DNA of 64,000 bases from a phage. Location: the sequence record PX393110.1; one strand, 5' to 3'. Below are positions 4,826 through 50,366 of this stretch, piece after piece. The translations under genes were made by a program, and so were the position numbers. Positions within the stretch are counted from its first letter, which is position 1; each line of letters starts with the position of its first letter. The notes under the pieces are model-generated. The model saw only the letters and a program-made list of their open reading frames with translations. It had not been told where the DNA came from and made no database searches.

Positions 4826-5330
4826 CTGTGTATCCTTTAAGTTTATTTCTATACTTAACCATTTCCTGCTTAGCTATCTCATCACAGAGATTATTTACTT
4901 TGTAGCGAGGATTATTGAACTTCTGATGACCTTTGACATGCTTAACCTTAATGGACTTAGGGTTAAGATCGCGAAGCATTTCCATATGCTTATCTATGAA
5001 TTCCTTTAATGCCCATTCGCAATCGCATTGGACGACTACCCTAACACCATCGAATGCTGTCTTAGTCATGGCAAACCATAGGGTCTTCATGATCCCTTCT
5101 AGCTCTGCCCAGTTATTATCTACAGCAGTAAATCCTCCGCGAGTTATATGAGCTCGCTGCTCACCAGGAAGACGAATCCATCCTCCGAAACCAGCAGCCT
5201 TACTCTTATGACAGTACGATGCATCTGAGAAGATTGTTATATAGCCCGCAGGGTCCAGACCGCGTTCGGGAGTACCCTCGAAGTGGATAACTCTACCAAC
5301 ATCTTTCTCACCGATAGCATGTTTCTTCAT
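4800..5330 (-). CDS. RNase H (type 1)
   Basis: The DEDD pattern aligns with E. coli RNase HI: FSDAS (FTDGS), AELEGI (MELMAA), QCDCEW (STDSQY), VKGH...NNLCDEIAK (VKGH..NERCDELAR). Confidence 0.75.
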   Translation of the reverse strand: MKKHAIGEKDVGRVIHFEGTPERGLDPAGYITIFSDASYCHKSKAAGFGGWIRLPGEQRAHITRGGFTAVDNNWAELEGIMKTLWFAMTKTAFDGVRVVVQCDCEWALKEFIDKHMEMLRDLNPKSIKVKHVKGHQKFNNPRYKVNNLCDEIAKQEMVKYRNKLKGYTDAGIFSGA

Positions 5331-6898
5331 TACATATCCACCGTAGTTGCCTGGAACAGACCTACCACCATTTCGTGGGACGGCTTCACGACCGGACTAT
5401 CGAAGTCAATAGAGCTGTTGATGTTCTGGTTAACCATCATCAGGCTACGTACTTCCCAGCAAGCACGATCAGTCAGTACACGGTGAATTGCTGCGGTATC
5501 ACCATCCACGTCCATGTTCTGACCACCCATCGCCATCGGAGGAACCTGAATCTCCTTACCCATGTGAGGTCTGACCTTAAATCCCCATACTGAGTAACGG
5601 TGTAGGGATGGCGCACGGTTCATGAATACCGTAGCATTTTCACACAGTCTCCAGCATACTTCCAGAGCTACTCTGGACTTATTCTTGTACATACGCTGTA
5701 CTTTATTGCTGATGTCGTACATGTTGTACCCTTCGTTAGTCGGGCCACCATATAAGTTCTCCAGCTCACCCAGGATGTCTGGCTGAAGTAATTCGTACAT
5801 CATCTTGAACGGTACACCAAGAGTATCCAGAGGAAGATGCGGAGCCGAAGTAACTACAGAACGACCAGAGTAATCAACACGCTTACCTAACAGGTTACCA
5901 CGAATGCGACCACCCTTGCCTTTAAGGTTATTGATCATCGGCTTAATCAAATTACCGCGATAGTCCTTAGTACCTTCCAGGATTAGTCCGTTAACCATCT
6001 TCTGCATTACAATAGATTCACGAGGAATCAGAGATAACAATGCTTCGCTGGCTTCAGCAGTATCACGAATACTTCTGATACGGATTGCATGGCGCAGGAT
6101 TCGCAGGTAGAGTAAGTTAGTCGGATGATACGACATTACCCCATTACTGATACCGACATCACGGTAGCTCGGAGGATTCACCAGTACTGTAGTGTTATAG
6201 AAGTCGCTGAACTCCGTATAACCACTATTGACTACTGTAGGATCTTCACACTCTTCGATATAGGCTTTCATATCGGCGTGGTTAGCTACCAATGCCTGGA
6301 TAAGACTCAGGAGACCTAATTCCGATGACTCATGCTCGGACATACGACGGATCTTAATCATTACTACTGCGAGGCGCTTCGTGCTATCCTGAACTGGGAT
6401 AGTATTAGAGTAGAACATCGCATACTTCTCACGATCTTCATATTCCGGAAGAGCTGCATTAGACTCACGAACCCGCTCCCGATCATCACCAACCATCTTA
6501 GCTGCCAAACCAGCTTCCTGAACTACGAAGCGGTATCTACCGATAAGGAACTGACCGAACTCTCTCTCTGGAAACCCGAATAACGCAGCCATACGTTTGA
6601 TAGCTAATGGATTCACATAAGGAACGATCGTCTCGATGTGACCCATACGGCGGCGACGGGATTCACGATGCATCGCTACCATACCGCATACATTACACGG
6701 AGGAGCTCCCATAACCAGCTGGTTACCACACTCACACTTACCAGTTACCAGAGGTCCGAATATTCGCTGGCAGAATAGCCCACCAGTGAATGGCTTAGGA
6801 TCATGGAACTTAAGATTATACATGCCCATGTTGGTTACTTCACCACTGGACTCGGCACGGATTACAGCATCAGTTGCAATAGATAACTTTAATTTCAT
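5330..6898 (-). CDS. multisubunit RNA polymerase beta-prime, N-terminal half
   Basis: GLFCQRIFGPLVTGKCECGN (Zn ribbon), RRRRMGHIE, NRAPSLHRYSVWGF, and the catalytic loop NMDVDGD (NADFDGD with all three Asp kept). All are collinear with the N-terminal half of bacterial RpoC. Confidence 0.85.
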   Translation of the reverse strand: MKLKLSIATDAVIRAESSGEVTNMGMYNLKFHDPKPFTGGLFCQRIFGPLVTGKCECGNQLVMGAPPCNVCGMVAMHRESRRRRMGHIETIVPYVNPLAIKRMAALFGFPEREFGQFLIGRYRFVVQEAGLAAKMVGDDRERVRESNAALPEYEDREKYAMFYSNTIPVQDSTKRLAVVMIKIRRMSEHESSELGLLSLIQALVANHADMKAYIEECEDPTVVNSGYTEFSDFYNTTVLVNPPSYRDVGISNGVMSYHPTNLLYLRILRHAIRIRSIRDTAEASEALLSLIPRESIVMQKMVNGLILEGTKDYRGNLIKPMINNLKGKGGRIRGNLLGKRVDYSGRSVVTSAPHLPLDTLGVPFKMMYELLQPDILGELENLYGGPTNEGYNMYDISNKVQRMYKNKSRVALEVCWRLCENATVFMNRAPSLHRYSVWGFKVRPHMGKEIQVPPMAMGGQNMDVDGDTAAIHRVLTDRACWEVRSLMMVNQNINSSIDFDSPVVKPSHEMVVGLFQATTVDM

Positions 6899-8776: not shown

Positions 8777-10291
8777 TTATTTGTTATTCAGATTTAACCC
8801 AGCAATGATCATCTCGGAACGGGTTCCGAAGCTAACATCACCATTAAGCACTGCCGAGGTAAGACGCTGCTTAACGTTACCGTGGCCAATAGACTTCAAC
8901 CAGCTAGGGTGCTTCGTAGGGATAGCATCAGCTTTAATCGCCAGTACCTCACCCTTATCACCCATGCTGCGAACACCGATTCGTCCGTTATTCATCTTAA
9001 CCAGATCAGTACAACCACGAGCAATGATCTCATGGTGAATCGATGCGATACCGATACCGATGTCGTCGAAGATGTGCTTAAGCTGGATTGATGCTAGCTC
9101 TGCACCCTTAATAGCCGACCCAGCTTCGTGAGCAAGATCCGTGATGCACTTATACTTAGACTCGGATACCTGAGCTACCGCAGTACCTCTACCACCTACC
9201 GTCTTCAGGATGTCAGCCAAGGTATTACTTACCGAAGTACCGAATTCCTTAAGAGTAGTCGAGCCAGATGTATGCTTACCACGAAGACCAGCCTGGGTAG
9301 ATGGTTCGGAGATATGCTGCGCCGACGCCGTTCCAATACCGAAGTTAATCGGGAAGAAGTTAGCTGGTTTAGCCGGATCCATACCGCAGCAATGCTGACA
9401 TACCCCACCCTTAGTCGATTCACAGGTAATCGGGCTAAGGACTTTAACGTTACCCTCTTCATCAGCTAACTGATCAACATTCTCCTTAGTGATCAGTACT
9501 CGATCATTAGTGAATCGATACAGTGCCGATTTCTTAGGTAGGGTAATCACTTCCTTAGTTCCGCAATCTTCTTCCACAATAGACAGCTCACGAGAGCAGT
9601 TAACCAGCTGACGAGCGAACCAGCCAGTCGCAGGTACCAGGAAGAAGTTACCAGCCAGACCCTTACGAGCAGGTCCGCAGGTGTTGAAGTAGTTGATAGG
9701 AGACAACCCGGAGCTTAAGTTCTCCATAATCGGCATCGGCATGATCTTACCAGTCATACCTACCAGAAGACCCTTAGCTACTACCATCGAGCGAACCTGG
9801 GGAGGAGATACACGAGCGCCAGATACACCCATCGCATACAGAGGATTATGACGGTCTACCTCTTTGAACCAGCGATCAGTACATTCGTTGATCACCTTAT
9901 CAGCAGCCACCAGACGATCCTCGTACTTCATCTTACCGAGTTCCTGGGTCATTGATGGGAAGTCGATACCGAAGTCAAACTTAGTGTCGTCATAGCACAA
10001 GCTAAGTCCAGACATAGTTGCTTTATGGAACCCGAACTGCTGCAACTTATGGAGTCTACGCCCAGCTACTTCCGGAGTGTAGTTATTATTGATGTGAGAG
10101 ACGATCTTCGCAGATTCCTTCTTATCGATTTCTTTTTCTGGAAGATAGCCACTGATTTCCCAAATAAACAGTCGACCGATAGTAGTTTCTTTAGGACCAT
10201 CAGAGAAGTAAAAACGCACCGGAGTGGTGTAGGTTGCTTCTTTCATATCAATAAGACGGTGTAATTCATTCAAGGACTTTGATACGATCAT
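8777..10291 (-). CDS. multisubunit RNA polymerase beta-prime, C-terminal half
   Basis: TTIGRLFIWEI, GLSLCYDD, SGARVSPPQVRSMV, bridge-helix-like CGPARKGLAGNF..TGWFARQLVN, EEDCGT, GVCQHCCG, trigger-loop-like AQHISEPSTQ, and C-terminal EMIIAGLN. All are collinear with the C-terminal half of RpoC. Confidence 0.85.
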   Translation of the reverse strand: MIVSKSLNELHRLIDMKEATYTTPVRFYFSDGPKETTIGRLFIWEISGYLPEKEIDKKESAKIVSHINNNYTPEVAGRRLHKLQQFGFHKATMSGLSLCYDDTKFDFGIDFPSMTQELGKMKYEDRLVAADKVINECTDRWFKEVDRHNPLYAMGVSGARVSPPQVRSMVVAKGLLVGMTGKIMPMPIMENLSSGLSPINYFNTCGPARKGLAGNFFLVPATGWFARQLVNCSRELSIVEEDCGTKEVITLPKKSALYRFTNDRVLITKENVDQLADEEGNVKVLSPITCESTKGGVCQHCCGMDPAKPANFFPINFGIGTASAQHISEPSTQAGLRGKHTSGSTTLKEFGTSVSNTLADILKTVGGRGTAVAQVSESKYKCITDLAHEAGSAIKGAELASIQLKHIFDDIGIGIASIHHEIIARGCTDLVKMNNGRIGVRSMGDKGEVLAIKADAIPTKHPSWLKSIGHGNVKQRLTSAVLNGDVSFGTRSEMIIAGLNLNNK

Positions 10292-27179: not shown

Positions 27180-27210
27180 TTAACAGCCTTTTAGGTCATC
27201 AAACAGGCGG
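27180..27210 (-). promoter_or_regulatory. class-1 motif copy 6
   Basis: CCGCCTGTTTGATGACCTAAAAGGCTGTTAA, 67 nt before ATG 27112. The BCCT stop lies inside the motif. Confidence 0.55.
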
Positions 27211-28581
27211 AGTTTCCTTAGCCAAGAATACTTTAGGTACAAAGATCTTGAGGAACCCGAATAGAATACACAATACCCCAATCAGTACCGGAACAGCCGA
27301 TACAGCTACCAGAGTCTTCGTTACAGTTACTACGTCGCCACCTGCCCAGTTAAGTGCAGCAGCAACTACACCCATGCTTACAATCCAGAATACACGAGTT
27401 CTAGGAGCGGTCATGGACTCTACCGTAATACCTGCTGAGTCATGACCTGTAATAAAGAACAGGATCACAGACACGAGGGTAATTACCGAGAATATCCATC
27501 CGCCTGGGAAATTAGCCAGAAGCTGGAAGATATCCTGAGCACCATGTTGTAGACCAGCTACACCGAATACGGTAAACCAGACGTTACTGATGATGGTAGG
27601 GAACAGTACACATCCGAGGATCAGTTCGCGAATAGTACGGCCGTAAGAGATACGTGCCACAAACGCTCCGACGAATAATGCCCAACCTACCCAGGCTGCA
27701 TAGTAAGCATAAGGCCAGCTAGCCAGCCATTGCTTCTCTTCAGCAGTACTGCCGATGTTTACTGACATAGGAATAATCTGGAGCAGATAGCTACCAGAAT
27801 AGGTGATGGTCTTCCAGAGGTATTCGAAGAATGTACCACTTACAGCAACGAATGCCATAATAGATAGAGCTACGATTACATTATATCTGGATAACCACTT
27901 AACCCCACGATCGACACCAGTTACGGCACTAAGTACAGTACCCAGAGTCAGGAGCGCGATAATGGTGTAAGGACCAACATCCACTCCCAGGAACTCTTTA
28001 AATCCGGAACTGATCGGGCCTACTGCGTAGACGAACGACAGGGTTAAGCCTATGATGGTAGAGAAGAGTAAGCTTATCGTATTAAGGTTATTCAGAGCTC
28101 GGGACTTGAATAACTGATTAAGCGGACGGTCTTCACCACGTACATGCAGTAAGTACCCGAATGCCACCCCTACGACTGCATAAACTGCCCATGCGTTAAG
28201 TCCCCAGTCAAAGAAGGTAGTTACCATATTCTGACGTTCGGACATACCCTCCTGCTGATGGTACATAGGTTCGAGTACACCATAATAAATCATGGATACA
28301 CCCATACCGGTACTAAACATCATGGAGTAATAGGTAAAGCGATTATATTTCGGAGCACCTTTACCCAGCTTAATGTTACCATGCTTGCTGAATACAAAGA
28401 ATGCCAGGAACGCTAGGAAGATCAGCGAAGACCAGGTAAATATGAATCCATACTGAGATATGAATACAGACTTACTCCAGTCCATTACAGCACCAAACTG
28501 GGTGGGAGCTAACATAATGGCGAGTATGATACCCACCGTTACTAGCACCGTCCCCCAGGTAACTACCTTTGAATCTGACAT
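27199..28581 (-). CDS. BCCT-family (betaine/carnitine/choline-type) transporter
   Basis: Polytopic membrane protein. SWPYAYYAAWVGWALFVGAFVARISYGRTIRELILGCVLFP aligns with the BCCT signature region (BetP [41 protein letters not shown]). Confidence 0.8.
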   Translation of the reverse strand: MSDSKVVTWGTVLVTVGIILAIMLAPTQFGAVMDWSKSVFISQYGFIFTWSSLIFLAFLAFFVFSKHGNIKLGKGAPKYNRFTYYSMMFSTGMGVSMIYYGVLEPMYHQQEGMSERQNMVTTFFDWGLNAWAVYAVVGVAFGYLLHVRGEDRPLNQLFKSRALNNLNTISLLFSTIIGLTLSFVYAVGPISSGFKEFLGVDVGPYTIIALLTLGTVLSAVTGVDRGVKWLSRYNVIVALSIMAFVAVSGTFFEYLWKTITYSGSYLLQIIPMSVNIGSTAEEKQWLASWPYAYYAAWVGWALFVGAFVARISYGRTIRELILGCVLFPTIISNVWFTVFGVAGLQHGAQDIFQLLANFPGGWIFSVITLVSVILFFITGHDSAGITVESMTAPRTRVFWIVSMGVVAAALNWAGGDVVTVTKTLVAVSAVPVLIGVLCILFGFLKIFVPKVFLAKETPPV

Positions 28582-46184: not shown

Positions 46185-46818
46185 AGTTACCTCTATGTTA
46201 TTTATTTTAAACTGGATAGGGACCTAATAGAGTAAATTAGTAAATAAATACTTATTAGTTACCTCTTACCTATGCTAAGGGAAGCGTACTCGAGGAGTAC
46301 AGAGGCTTAGCGAAAGAGCGGAGTAACACCTTTATCCCAATTAGTCAAAGTAGAGAGCGAAGGAGTCGCGCCCGCTTGAGGCGGCGCGACCTCCGCTTCA
46401 CCAATCCTACCGGATGAGCGCCTGCGACCACCCGAGCCTACCCCTGCATCACTCTCTAAAGCCACTTCGGGCTTTACCTCGTTCTGCTACGCGATACGCA
46501 GGCGATAGCTACACTAAGTCCCCTGGAGATGGCTAGTAAGCATCCGCTACCAGTCATATCCAACCTAACATTGGCGAAGCCAGGGACTAGGCACTCCGCG
46601 CCAATAAGCTACATTAGGATTTATGTCCGTATTCGAAGATAGGCCGATCGGTGAGACTATGCATTCATCTCTGCTCAACCAGGAAGCGCCGATTAGGGTA
46701 AATACCCAAACTACCTTCTTAATGTCACTCCTCCCAGACCGCTTCGGGACTTAGCTTAAGTCATATCCGAATAATCTGGCATCTACGACGGACCGTAGTG
46801 TATGGAGCGTACTGCAAT
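46185..46818 (-). other. 634-nt ORF-free, highly structured leader / candidate large ncRNA
   Basis: No ORF of 60 aa or more on either strand. A class-1 motif sits at its 5' end. Contains many GC-rich helices (details in findings). Confidence 0.35.
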
Positions 46819-46848: not shown

Positions 46849-46982
46849 TAATTAGGGACCCGATTATTCCACTTAGCTGCCATCCGTTCGGGTCAACACA
46901 GATCGTTCCAGGTCTTAGGCATCATACCAGACCGTTTCAGTACACTCGGATTATTAGTTCCCGGTGACCATTTAAAGATGGT

Positions 46983-47055
46983 GGCCCATACTGGTTTCGA
47001 ACCAGTGACCAATCGATTATGAGTCGACTGCTCTCACCACTGAGCTAATGGGCCG
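46983..47055 (-). tRNA. tRNA with CAU anticodon (Met elongator or Ile2/lysidine type)
   Basis: Hand-folded cloverleaf: acceptor GGCCCAT/ATGGGCC, D arm GCTC..GAGC, anticodon arm GTCGA-CTCATAA-TCGAT, T arm ACTGG-TTCGAAA-CCAGT, discriminator A. CCA is not encoded. Confidence 0.85.
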
Positions 47056-47199
47056 AACTGGTCGGGACCGTGGCCCACACTAGAGGATTTGCCAAACTCC
47101 CCATTATCATGGCCTAAGCCATCCAGACAGCCGTGACTACCCTGCTCCGGTACATGTGATAATGGGGACGTATCCAAAAATGTGGAGATCCCGTTAAGG
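47056..47199 (-). other. 144-nt structured inter-tRNA spacer
   Basis: 11-bp stem CCCCATTATCA (47100-10) / TGATAATGGGG (47158-68) enclosing the hairpin ATGGC-CTAA-GCCAT. No T-loop, so it is not a tRNA. Confidence 0.4.
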
Positions 47200-47276
47200 T
47201 GGTACTCCCTACAGGATTCGAACCTGTGACCAATAGCTTAGAAGGCTACTGCTCTATCCAGCTGAGCTAAGGGAGC
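47200..47276 (-). tRNA. tRNA-Arg (UCU)
   Basis: Hand-folded cloverleaf: acceptor GCTCCCT/AGGGAGT, D arm GCTC..GAGC, anticodon arm GTAGC-CTTCTAA-GCTAT, T arm ACAGG-TTCGAAT-CCTGT, encoded CCA. Confidence 0.85.
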
Positions 47277-47457
47277 TTATTAATTCTTCTACCTGCTTAA
47301 CAGATTTATTCATGCCTGTTCCGTGACACTCCCCGCAGACCCAAGTCCGACAGAAGATATCACCAGGCTCAGCATCGTCACACTCTCCTAAACCTCCACA
47401 TTCTGGACATTTAGCTTCATTAACAATACTTCTTAGCTTATGAAAAGTAGTTTCCAT
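47254..47457 (-). CDS. DnaJ-type zinc-finger mini-protein
   Basis: Two CxxCxGxG repeats (CPECGGLG, CGECHGTG) plus CRTWVC. GGAGG RBS. The last 23 nt overlap the 5' part of tRNA-Arg. Confidence 0.55.
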   Translation of the reverse strand: METTFHKLRSIVNEAKCPECGGLGECDDAEPGDIFCRTWVCGECHGTGMNKSVKQVEELISSLSSAG

Positions 47458-47473
47458 AAATCCTCCATTTTAG

Positions 47474-47541
47474 GATGACCTCTTAGCTTACCATCGCGAA
47501 AAGCTACATGGAGTGTAGTTAACGTGAACTAAGAGGTCATC
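47474..47541 (-). repeat. 13-bp perfect inverted repeat between two small genes
   Basis: GATGACCTCTTAG (47474-86) / CTAAGAGGTCATC (47529-41), with the inner hairpin CTACA-TGGAG-TGTAG. It ends 5 nt before the GGAGG RBS of ORF 47254..47457. Confidence 0.5.
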
Positions 47542-47547
47542 ATAAAA

Positions 47548-47649
47548 TCAGCTATTGAAAGCTAATATAATACTGTCCCAACCATCTACATAAATTGCGT
47601 TGGCTACATATAATACGAAGAATATAGCAACGACTATTGGATTAATCAT
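47548..47649 (-). CDS. 33-aa single-pass membrane peptide
   Basis: Internal ATG of ORF 47548..47757 with an AGGAG RBS: MINPIVVAIFFVLYVANAIYVDGWDSIILAFNS (hydrophobic helix). Confidence 0.4.
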   Translation of the reverse strand: MINPIVVAIFFVLYVANAIYVDGWDSIILAFNS

Positions 47650-47989
47650 CGTACTCTCCTGAGAAATATTATCCTGCTTACTGTTACAGGGACGCCGTTC
47701 GTCGCGCCAGATTACCAATCGGCGATTAAGCCGATCTCGCCAACCGCGTAACGCCATTGGCTGGTATCACATAGGCTTGTAGCCCTCAGTCAACCTGTCC
47801 TGAGGAGGTAGGAAGAGCCATACGCCAAATCCGGGATTGATAGTCCCATATAGCTTCCTACTTTGCCATTCTCGTATGGCCTCGGATACGACTGTCTCTG
47901 GGTAAGGAGTCCCGACAGCTGATACGGTTTAGTTTATTTTTAATTTGAGTCCCACTCATACCTTACAGACTCAAGCACTGCAGACCACC
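47650..47989 (-). other. ORF-free structured region upstream of the membrane-peptide gene
   Basis: Long-range 8-bp stem GCCATACG/CGTATGGC (47817-24 / 47873-80). Hairpins ATCGGC/GCCGAT, CCTCAG/CTGAGG and CTGTC/GACAG. Confidence 0.3.
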
Positions 47990-48019
47990 GAAAAACCGAC
48001 TGGTACGCTAGCAGTCGGT
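47990..48019 (-). terminator. intrinsic terminator about 30 nt downstream of class-1 copy 14
   Basis: ACCGACUG-CUAGCGUAC-CAGUCGGU followed by UUUUCGG. Confidence 0.55.
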
Positions 48020-48046
48020 CCCACGGATCCCATGAACAACTTATGA
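47990..48046 (-). ncRNA. candidate ~55-nt small RNA (class-1 motif to terminator)
   Basis: Bounded by class-1 copy 14 and the terminator at 47990..48019. The only ORF inside is 20 codons with no RBS. Confidence 0.25.
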
Positions 48047-48050
48047 CAAT

Positions 48051-48080
48051 TTAACAGCCTTTCGAGTCATCAAAAGAGTG
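48051..48080 (-). promoter_or_regulatory. class-1 motif copy 14
   Basis: CACTCTTTTGATGACTCGAAAGGCTGTTAA, followed about 30 nt later by a hairpin plus U-run. Confidence 0.55.
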
Positions 48081-48232
48081 TTAAGTTGCCCGCTCCCTAT
48101 CACCGAGCACTGTGATGATGGGAAATAGGGAGCGAAACGATTCCTAAGTTTTATCTTCTTCTCTAAGTGATTAACCGTTACATACGATATACCTTCTTAG
48201 TTAGATAAGCCGGAATTGGCACTTCGAACACT

Positions 48233-48263
48233 TTAACAGCCTTTCGACCGTACAAAAGAGCGG
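48233..48263 (-). promoter_or_regulatory. class-1 motif copy 15
   Basis: CCGCTCTTTTGTACGGTCGAAAGGCTGTTAA. In tandem with copy 16, 58 nt apart. Confidence 0.55.
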
Positions 48264-48268
48264 CGTAA

Positions 48269-48811
48269 TTAGACGCTCGCCTCAGACACTTTAACAGCCT
48301 TTGGAACTGTAAAAAGAGCGGGTTTATACCATTCGGGAGTGCGGTAGAAAGTAATGGTACGACCCTCTTTCTCCCAGATATAGTATTTATCGTTCAGGTA
48401 GTTACGATACTTCTCGTAAACTGTTTCGCCAGGAGCACCTGCCACACACGCATAAGGTGTCATGTCAGTCTCCGGACCGACCTTCAAGTTCTTAGGCAGT
48501 TTGCTGAGTCGCGACAGAATAATATCTGTGGCATGCATACGACCGGTACGTTCATAGAACAGGATACACAGATAGTTAGCCAGCTCTTTAACGAAGTTGT
48601 AGTTACCGGAAGATTCACGGACCCAGCGTGCTGATGGGTGATTTACGTGAGTCTGTTTGTAAATACCCTCGATAGCTTGATCGCCATCCAGAACATGATG
48701 AGCTGTGGACAACAGCTGAGCACATTCGATAATCATTTTATTCTGGTGCATTGGCATACAATGGTCCATAGCACATTCTAACGCATCTTCGTGAGTACGG
48801 AAAATATTCAC
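48269..48811 (-). CDS. hypothetical protein, possibly pyrimidine-dimer DNA glycosylase (DenV/Pyr_excise)-like
   Basis: GTG start with AGGAG RBS. The pattern K..IEC.QLL...H.......YK.TH.NHPS.RW and C-terminal PEWYK loosely recall the DenV-related family. The last 12 codons are a class-1 motif. Confidence 0.35.
   Translation of the reverse strand: MNIFRTHEDALECAMDHCMPMHQNKMIIECAQLLSTAHHVLDGDQAIEGIYKQTHVNHPSARWVRESSGNYNFVKELANYLCILFYERTGRMHATDIILSRLSKLPKNLKVGPETDMTPYACVAGAPGETVYEKYRNYLNDKYYIWEKEGRTITFYRTPEWYKPALFTVPKAVKVSEASV
48291..48321 (-). promoter_or_regulatory. class-1 motif copy 16
   Basis: CCGCTCTTTTTACAGTTCCAAAGGCTGTTAA. It lies inside the last codons of ORF 48269..48811. Confidence 0.5.
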
Positions 48812-50329: not shown

Positions 50330-50366
50330 GCGCTCTAAAGATAGGCCTCAAAAGGGTGTTTTTGTG
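50330..50366 (+). promoter_or_regulatory. possible rightward, diverged class-1-like element
   Basis: Plus strand GCGCTCT-N14-AAAGGGTGTTTTTGTG, about 55 nt before ATG 50421. Spacing is 2 nt longer than class 1. Confidence 0.2.

Follow-up and report, generated by a model that had tools for sequence, protein, structure and literature searches.

A structured non-coding locus behind tandem promoter-like motifs at the head of a tRNA island in a rare group of Escherichia coli phages

Introduction

The stretch of phage DNA analyzed here, 64,000 nucleotides (nt) of sequence record PX393110.1 and called the window below, contains a gene-free block of about 620 nt at positions 47650-48268. The block reads on the minus strand, is situated just upstream of tRNA genes and carries several promoter-like motifs. 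What would a phage transcribe from such a place, where promoters appear to fire into DNA that encodes no protein? A preliminary description of this DNA suggested small regulatory RNAs or a regulatory hub feeding the tRNA cluster. The elements that it listed all exist where it placed them, and its interpretation proves to be half right. The block is a real, conserved and structured non-coding locus, and the promoter-like elements in front of it are real as well. As to its function, we lean towards a reading in which the block is the promoter-proximal, non-coding head of an island of tRNAs and non-coding RNAs (ncRNAs), and in which a module of the block would be released and accumulate as a trans-acting RNA, stable and structured. 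The 'regulatory' role given to the block earlier is a conjecture.

Copies of the block and constraint on them

Within the rare E. coli phage group IME392/EP_H11, the window forms a third lineage. Its only relatives in GenBank are vB_EcoM_IME392 (MH719082) and EP_H11 (OP688485), and together they make up a small group of E. coli myoviruses. The TerL proteins of both relatives are 99% identical to that of the window, and the DNA across the block is 85-88% identical. Additional relatives were gathered by way of the flanking proteins, leading from these to the members of their clusters and then to the encoding contigs (Logan and ENA contigs of the same clade). The conservation and covariation that the preliminary description had proposed to look for were both found: ten distinct copies of the block were recovered, and there are compensatory changes in several helices. 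The copies are those of the window, L009, IME392 (L001), L008, L015 (identical to L016), L018, EP_H11 (L002), L012, L019 and L020, which amount to roughly 3-4 lineages, all from one clade. Two alignments were made, A3 from motif copy P14 to the 3' end and A4 from motif copy P16 to P14.

No homolog of the block was found in IMG/VR (searched by TerL and by 30-mer), in JGI metagenomes (searched with two invariant strings) or in E. coli genomes, and phage GenBank, searched in near and distant modes, contains none outside the clade. The GTDB genomes have no homolog either; their single match, L011, was rejected as a chance 22-mer inside a GC-rich coding region. The IMG/VR contigs L003-L007, which carry distant homologs of the 180-residue protein encoded next to the block, were set aside because their contexts are unrelated.

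The block has no conserved reading frame and is non-coding. About ten single-base indels are distributed along it among the ten homologs, in every reading frame. This bears on the proposal of one or more small proteins encoded by the block, for which there are several candidate open reading frames (ORFs): two of 33 residues at 47858-47959(-) and 47945-48046(+), a 69-residue upstream extension of the peptide ORF that follows the block, and a 35-codon ORF in a 122-nt module that replaces part of the block in L009. The ORF at 47858-47959(-) is frameshifted in IME392 and L008. The 69-residue extension is in another frame in IME392 after a 1-nt insertion, and its start codon is absent in EP_H11. 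Single-base indels between lineages occur in every candidate frame, and the reading frame through a 44-nt invariant run differs between the window and IME392. Furthermore, the substitutions lack a 3-nt periodicity and instead pair up across helices. Small proteins are thus the least probable of the explanations considered.

The part of the block behind the promoters is 81-86% identical to its relatives. The local neutral yardstick is uneven, because four-fold degenerate sites are 51% identical in the adjacent gene for the 180-residue protein and 80-84% identical in a gene for a 263-residue protein (range 0.51-0.84). Overall identity is therefore no proof of selection, and the case rests on the pattern of variation and on compensation. 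The pattern, unlike the overall identity, does show constraint on the block. The 92 variable columns among the 377 of the alignment are strongly clustered. The 44-nt invariant run, which forms the 3' end of the module, was not reached in 5000 permutations, and the least variable window of 66 columns contains 3 variable columns (permutation p = 0.0006), whereas other windows of 30 columns hold 16 (p = 0.03).

The promoter-like motif

Sixteen copies of the motif in question (CTTTAACAGCCTTTSGA on the plus strand, TCSAAAGGCTGTTAAAG on the minus strand) are found in the window, compared to 0.31 expected. All 16 share one orientation, along the minus-strand genes, and sit in the minus-strand gene block. 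The minus-strand consensus is CCGCTCTTTT-N8-9-(T)CSAAAGGCTGTTAAAGTG, and the whole motif is about 35 nt long (CCGCTCTTTT-N8-9-AAAGGCTGTTAAAGTG). Wherever an ORF follows a copy, its start codon is roughly 17-80 nt downstream, and for this reason the motif looks like a promoter. From the sequence we infer that the motifs are active promoters and, likewise, which polymerase would use them; it may be the phage's own. A sigma-70 extended -10 element (TGnTAAAGT) is another possible reading of the motif; there is no -35 match, and the related core in Acinetobacter phage Ab1-TPeters has one extra T between TG and TAAAGT.

The three copies reported earlier for the block are present at 48049, 48231 and 48289, all facing the minus strand with 0-1 mismatch to the 17-nt core, and they fall within 280 nt. 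P16 (48285..48322, core 48289-48305) is the upstream copy of a tandem pair. It is positioned just past the end of the block at 48268, where it overlaps the last codons of the 180-residue ORF (48269-48811(-)) that adjoins the block. P15 (48227..48264, core 48231-48247) is the downstream copy, and its core is invariant in all nine sequences that cover it. The spacing of 58 nt given for this pair is exact. P16 is found in the window, L009, IME392, L008, L012 and L020, but EP_H11 has lost it by a 58-nt deletion between the repeats and retains a single copy. P14 (48045..48082, core 48049-48065) is 182 nt beyond P15, and its core, like that of P15, is invariant in the relatives. P14 belongs to a subtype, TTAAATTG, that it has in common with P13 at 46817: these two copies, each of which stands before a large non-coding block, carry a near-identical 32-nt version of the motif ending in TTAAATTG. 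Unlike the copies that stand before an ORF, P13, P14, P15 and P16 precede non-coding sequence, and no conserved ORF follows those of the block. The arrangement of promoter-like elements before non-coding sequence, as first described, is conserved in every relative, and the minus strand behind them shows covarying structure.

No other copy of the motif is found between P14 and the gene of tRNA-Met, so P14-P16 are the likely promoters of tRNA-Arg and tRNA-Met and the obvious source of their transcription; one weak terminator-like site is flagged between the block and the tRNAs. This is in good agreement with the earlier proposal that the block feeds the tRNA cluster, as is the clustering of the Ab1-TPeters motif in the tRNA island of that phage.

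Two other properties of the motif deserve mention. Its upstream half reads CGCUCUUUU in 10 of the 16 copies, for example at 48255-48264 and 48073-48082, which is nearly the boxA of rrn operons (UGCUCUUUA) and of lambda nut (CGCUCUUA). This half also forms a partial inverted repeat with the downstream CGAAAGG. Both the likeness to boxA and the repeat may be coincidence. Four independent Logan contigs (L015, L016, L018 and L019), among them one of 113 kb, terminate precisely at the P15 motif, their position 1 corresponding to about 48256-48262 of the window. The cause is probably that the assembly broke off at the repeated promoter, not that the genome ends there.

Tandem promoters without an ORF behind them could also belong to a transcription-primed replication origin of the T7 or T4 type, functioning at the level of DNA, in which the hairpins and an A-rich run would aid unwinding or priming. 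Indeed, there is a conserved A-rich run at 47944-47922, and the block is located between the replication and the packaging genes. However, the run is only 21 nt long, the GC content of the block is 47% compared to 46% for the window, and there is no GC-skew inflection at the block. An iteron array is missing too, as the repeats consist only of the promoter copies and two short two-copy matches. Finally, the substitutions are G.U-compatible on one strand, which points to pairing in RNA. An origin at this position is quite unlikely.

Structure of the leader and the module

Transcripts started at P15 or P16 would open with a 145-nt leader that ends in a hairpin, H0. The leader RNA (48135..48226(-)) is about 90% conserved and contains a hairpin, GCC(48220-18)/GGC(48211-09), the middle pair of which changes from C-G to A-U in EP_H11. 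A Shine-Dalgarno-like start-stop mini-ORF, AAGAAGG-N8-AUG-UAA, is positioned between P15 and H0 at 48176-48196(-) and is conserved in all nine sequences. H0 (48091..48134(-)), directly upstream of P14, is a hairpin of 10-12 base pairs (bp) with an invariant 24-nt loop and without a U-tract. The perfect 10-bp stem noticed earlier at 48091-100/48125-34 is part of H0. When the block was shuffled with its dinucleotides preserved, 1.8% of the shuffles contained such a stem, which makes it unlikely by chance. The stem is conserved with compensation, because the closing C-G pair of H0 is A-U in EP_H11, L012 and L020, and a U.G pair is found in L008. The 183-nt segment made up of the leader, H0 and P14 has a folding z of -3.4. 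Perfect 8-bp stems number 6 in the block compared to 0.49 expected (p about 0.002), with overlapping 8-mers counted and three of the six belonging to the 10-bp stem. The 8-bp long-range stem pointed out in the preliminary description, GCCAUACG/CGUAUGGC at 47817-24/47873-80, does exist, but it is not conserved: it has no counterpart in other lineages and competes with hairpins H4 and H5.

From P14, an autonomous module of about 370 nt (~48045 to 47673(-)) would be transcribed, with about ten hairpins. The first of these, H1 (47991..48018(-)), is 7-10 bp long and is located about 25 nt downstream of P14. It was missed by the terminator scanner because of its 9-nt loop. The preliminary description placed a terminator here, and there is indeed a hairpin (48018-47996) followed by U5 (47995-91). 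The stem is conserved, with one pair changing from C-G to U-A and two pairs passing through G.U. The U-tract, on the other hand, is shared by the window, L009 and the EP_H11 type; in the IME392 lineage CUUCAU takes its place. H1 is more likely to be a 5' structural or stabilizing hairpin, or a lineage-specific attenuator, than a conserved terminator.

The most conserved stretch in the first half of the module (47922..47990(-)) comprises GGUGGUCUGCAGUGC, hairpin H2 (47974-47945) and the A-rich AAAUUAAAAAUAAACUAAACC, and includes, besides the least variable window of 66 columns, invariant runs of 20 and 21 columns (columns 85-104 and 118-138). It is followed by H3 and H4 (47872..47918(-)). The loop of H3 (47918-47892), ACUCCUUA, resembles the anti-Shine-Dalgarno sequence; the outer stem of this hairpin is 100% paired, and its inner stem shifts register between lineages. 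H4 (47891-47872) is 90% paired. H5 (47808..47861(-)) is an extended hairpin with an invariant cap, GGGACUAUCAAUCCC. Its stems in the window and L009 (8+5 bp) are GUAGGAAG..AUAUG / CGUAU..CUUCCUAC, and in all other copies (5+6 bp) AGAUC.UACUCU / AGAGUA..GAUCU. The two versions are fully different in sequence and are still complementary. H6 (47805-47784(-)) and H7 (47783-47775(-)) are invariant.

H8 (47713..47766(-)) takes the form of a three-way junction in all lineages. Its closing stem is UACC(A)/(U)GGUA (UACCA/UGGUA in the window), and arm A (47761-47739) and arm B (47735-47718) emerge from it. Arm B is found as a series of AUCGGC/GCCGAU, AUUGGC/GCCGAU with a U.G pair, and AUUGGC/GCCAAU. Arm A reads GCCAAU..GUUGGC in one group and GCUCAUUGCG..CGCGAUGAGC in L012, and pairs in each lineage in spite of the many differences; an A.G mismatch in EP_H11 corresponds to a C-G pair in L012. 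In L009, a near-identical relative (98%), an unrelated insert of 122 nt (positions 1207-1328) replaces both arms (window 47716-47763) and the closing stem is kept. The 35-codon ORF of this insert starts AUGAUGGCGCUUACC, resembling the AUGGCGUUACGC of the window at the same place. The invariant 3' end of the module (47673..47712(-)) contains H9 (47708-47691) and H10 (47690-47673). H10 was flagged as terminator-like by the scanner, and its tail differs between lineages.

In the MAFFT alignment, 94.6% of the cells of in-register helices are paired, compared to 29-44% with slid partners. The covariation score of these helices was reached by 2 of 500 shuffles, and three pairs show double changes. 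This count leaves out H5 and arm A of H8, the strongest cases, which are out of register in the alignment. Among the pair columns that vary, read on the minus strand, G.U occurs in 7 and A.C in 1, which fits an RNA made from the minus strand, the strand that the promoters face. Compensatory changes keep H0, H1, H5, arms A and B of H8 and the leader hairpin paired, with a power that is limited by the 3-4 or so lineages. H2, H6, H7, H9 and H10 never vary and are uninformative for covariation. The long-range 5'-3' pairings of the global RNAalifold consensus, for instance GGAUCCGU with ACGG-C-GUCC, were not adopted because all their pairs are invariant and hence uninformative.

None of the Rfam 15 models, which include tRNA, tmRNA, RNase P, 6S, ROOL, GOLLD, riboswitches and ribozymes, matches the block; only the two tRNAs outside it are matched. 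Within 47600-48340 the best match has E = 3.2 (E up to 10 was allowed), and none reaches its gathering threshold. Readings of the block as tRNA-like, as a tmRNA or as a ribozyme were ruled out by Rfam and ARAGORN.

These data also bear on the idea that the block is functionless, a collection of decayed gene or tRNA remnants and recombination-spread hairpins in a hyper-mosaic region, conserved through recent shared ancestry. The island is highly mosaic, the identity of the block is similar to that of the four-fold sites of the 263-residue gene, and the 8-bp stem at 47817-24/47873-80 exemplifies a chance stem. Nevertheless, invariant and variable columns cluster in a highly non-random way, and pairing survives complete rewrites of stems as well as G.U intermediates. 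All 10 recovered genomes have the block, whereas its neighbors come and go, and there is no tRNA-like or other Rfam signal even at E = 10. Absence of function is very unlikely.

Boundaries of the module and its possible function

The conserved module stops abruptly at ...CCUGUAACAGUAAGCAGG (47673), and the sequence 3' of this point is unrelated between lineages. In the window, L009 and the IME392 type, the module is followed by the gene for a hydrophobic peptide of 33 residues (47548-47649(-)), the membrane-peptide gene that had been described downstream of the block. This ORF is an optional neighbor outside the conserved module and is absent from EP_H11, L012, L019 and L020. EP_H11 and L020 have a short spacer instead, with a hairpin and tRNA-Gly behind it in EP_H11. 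In L012 the next element is directly a 142-nt module that in the window is located between the two tRNAs, and in L019 it is a hairpin with a 210-residue ORF. The block is thus the constant element, found in all 10 genomes, and the downstream neighbors are optional.

In place of the small regulatory RNAs suggested earlier, the block appears to contain one sharply bounded multi-hairpin module of about 370 nt and a leader of 145 nt. We propose the following course of events. The tandem pair P16 and P15, together with P14, would act as early or middle type phage promoters firing on the minus strand, and the three would give strong transcription of an untranslated operon. Transcripts from P15 and P16 would begin with the leader and H0, and those from P14 with the module, including H5 and H8. 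Read-through would carry transcription into the variable cargo, namely the peptide ORF, small ORFs, tRNA-Arg, the 142-nt module and tRNA-Met. By analogy with the processing of tRNA operons, the module might be cut from the precursor as the tRNAs are, and the released RNA might act in trans, for example as a protein-binding scaffold or a decoy. Release and action in trans are suggested by how sharply the module is bounded, by its size, by the exchangeable peripheral arms of its junction and by the lack of any tie to the sequence downstream. The ends of the transcripts and their processing are likewise those that we infer.

The main rival is that the block acts in cis, as a leader for the tRNA operon, and gives rise to no independent RNA. 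It would then serve as a processing platform, as a set of stabilizing 5' and 3' hairpins, or as an antitermination element resembling those of rrn, nut or put. The block is always the 5'-most part of the island, immediately after the promoters, and tandem promoters with a structured leader resemble rrn operons. Furthermore, the boxA-like CGCUCUUUU (rrn UGCUCUUUA, lambda CGCUCUUA; PMC2724277) would be transcribed at P15 and P14 from the promoters above, and H1 with its U5 could serve as an attenuator. However, a length of 370 nt, a three-way junction, swappable arms and a sharp 3' boundary exceed the needs of known antitermination and leader elements. The downstream cargo differs in every lineage, and so nothing specific would be regulated. 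In addition, CGCUCUUUU is not specific to the leader, since it occurs in 10 of 16 motif copies genome-wide, and it is missing from the Ab1-TPeters motif. A purely cis-acting leader is a serious possibility, to which we give roughly one part in four of our belief.

Several observations weigh against a released, trans-acting RNA. The homologs found all belong to a single clade, with only about 3-4 independent lineages. The 81-86% identity of the block does not clearly exceed the best local yardstick of neutrality. The majority of helices do not vary and are therefore uninformative, and double changes are found in only three in-register pairs. The folding energy of the 396-nt region is unremarkable, with z = -1.3 for the minus strand and -2.2 for the plus strand. 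The 'swaps' in H5 and arm A could reflect recombinational replacement of whole hairpins and not stepwise compensation. Lastly, in the lineage of the window, transcription from P14 could end at H1 and U5, after about 50 nt. A released and stable trans-acting module is nonetheless the reading that we favor, with moderate confidence.

The island and its genome context

The block is positioned at the head of an island of about 2.1 kb (48330-46190), nearly all of which is non-coding. The island begins with P16, P15, the leader and H0, continues with P14 and the 370-nt module, and then with the peptide ORF and a 12-bp hairpin. These are followed by a 67-residue ORF with CxxCxGxG repeats, tRNA-Arg, the conserved 142-nt module, tRNA-Met, P13 and a GC-rich block. 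The two tRNAs, tRNA-Arg-UCU (47200-47276) and tRNA-Met-CAU (46979-47054), were identified by Rfam.

The hairpin between the peptide ORF and the 67-residue ORF (47474-47538(-)) has a 12-bp stem (AUGACCUCUUAG...CUAAGAGGUCAU) and is not followed by a U-tract. It is 97% identical in EP_H11 and 90% identical in L019, despite different flanking genes. The 67-residue ORF (47254-47457(-)) contains two DnaJ-type CxxCxGxG zinc-finger repeats (a weak match to Pfam PF00684, E = 0.0017). With its last 23 nt it reaches into the 5' end of tRNA-Arg, and among the sequences examined it is found only in the window and L009. Six relatives carry the 142-nt non-coding module between the tRNAs (47056-47197(-)), with 85-92% identity. 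This module acts like a movable unit, as in L012 it comes directly after the block, without an intervening peptide gene or tRNA-Arg.

Downstream of tRNA-Met and P13 there is a second, larger non-coding block (46190-46815(-)) of about 560-620 nt with up to 58% GC. It is 93-98% identical in 10 relatives, its first 370 nt being almost invariant, and has variable hairpin inserts. The predicted structure is dense and there is no Rfam match, so that this block looks like another large structured RNA. It is possible, though doubtful, that the two blocks are previously undescribed large structured RNAs, functional counterparts of ROOL and GOLLD, and that the P13/P14 subtype TTAAATTG marks an ncRNA regulon. 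They would then belong to a phage lineage that has its own multisubunit RNA polymerase and probably hypermodified DNA. If so, the two RNAs might form RNA-only assemblies, or might be decoys or scaffolds that protect or deliver phage tRNAs or counter host defense.

The minus-strand genes extend from position 1 to about 50260 and encode a family-A DNA polymerase, topoisomerase II subunits, an SbcCD-like protein and helicases, together with two beta'-like fragments of a multisubunit RNA polymerase. The plus-strand packaging and structural genes begin at 50364. The two fragments are ORFs with Rpb1/beta' domains 1-2 (5330-6898(-)) and 3-5 (8777-10291(-)), and constitute a split multisubunit RNA polymerase of the phiKZ/AR9-type kind, in a genome of about 112-116 kb. 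The early gene block also contains an unusual phage cargo, a full-length BCCT betaine/carnitine/choline transporter (27199-28581(-); PF02028, E = 4e-92). IME392 and EP_H11 were placed in 2025 among the 'RP13-like' phages, kin of YerA41 and SP-15, which carry hypermodified thymidine (PMC12686479).

The island of Acinetobacter phage Ab1-TPeters

The TerL of Acinetobacter phage Ab1-TPeters is 59% identical to that of the window, and the island is absent beside its terminase genes. Elsewhere in the genome (L021, 16800-20250) there is an ORF-poor island of about 3.3 kb, in which only tiny ORFs are annotated, on both strands, and which contains long hairpins. This island has unannotated genes of tRNA-Arg(UCU) and tRNA-Met(CAU), the same pair in the same order as in the window. 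Four of the approximately six good copies of a related motif core, AAAGCTGTTTAAAGT, are found in it. The core differs by 1 nt from that of the window, the upstream half of the motif is different and has its own inverted repeat (ACUCAAAAUUGAGU), and the boxA-like string is missing. The Ab1-TPeters island is probably the counterpart of the island in the window at a different genome position. Alignments of the block, the leader and block-1 showed no detectable similarity to Ab1-TPeters in nhmmer searches. As this parallel arrangement shows, promoter-dense tRNA/ncRNA islands predate the E. coli clade as an architecture, whereas this particular RNA does not detectably do so.

Comparison with known systems

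The RNAs C and D of phage T4 (species 1 and 2) are stable RNAs other than tRNAs that are co-transcribed with tRNAs and released by processing, and their function is unknown. They are about 120-140 nt long and are located at the distal end of the tRNA cluster. The module described here, which is likened to them by description and not by sequence, is about 370 nt long and at the promoter-proximal end. The primary origin of phage T7 consists of tandem phage promoters, phi1.1A and 1.1B, that fire into a non-coding region, and an AT-rich region. The block differs from it in having no extended AT-rich region, iterons or skew change, and in substitutions that fit pairing in RNA.

The heads of rrn operons (P1/P2 and a boxA leader) and lambda nut share with the proposed reading of the locus the tandem promoters, a long untranslated transcript containing tRNAs and a boxA-like CGCUCUUUU in the leader RNA (PMC2724277). 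However, the boxA-like string of the block belongs to a genome-wide promoter motif, and the polymerase may be the phage's own.

ROOL and GOLLD are phage-encoded, heavily structured RNAs of hundreds of nucleotides that are 'often near tRNA islands' and whose function is unknown (bioRxiv 10.1101/2024.12.08.627333). The block is similar in being phage-encoded, hundreds of nucleotides long, structured and beside a tRNA island. It does not match an Rfam model even at E = 10, and hence is not a member of either family. With about 370 nt it is also shorter than these RNAs, which have about 580-800 nt or more, and it consists mostly of simple hairpins with one three-way junction and no demonstrated pseudoknots, in one small clade of E. 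coli phages. The Staphylococcus Kayvirus phage K produces abundant long non-coding RNAs (lncRNAs), noted for their position relative to tRNA genes and of unknown function (PMC9241854). The likeness lies in a phage ncRNA near tRNA genes. There is no sequence relationship, and expression has been measured for phage K, whereas that of the block is a prediction.

The RNA predicted from the block would thus constitute a new family among the large phage RNAs beside tRNA islands, so far in one rare clade. Such RNAs (ROOL, GOLLD, the phage K lncRNAs and T4 RNAs C and D) form a recurring class with no known function, and the locus would provide a further case, in an E. coli phage that can be cultured and whose genetics is easy. 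Its defined promoters, module boundaries and natural stem-swap variants are suited to disrupt-and-restore work. The locus is also a compact test bed for this class of phage promoters, since it offers three copies within 280 nt, a deletion variant that arose naturally and an Acinetobacter relative whose core differs by 1 nt.

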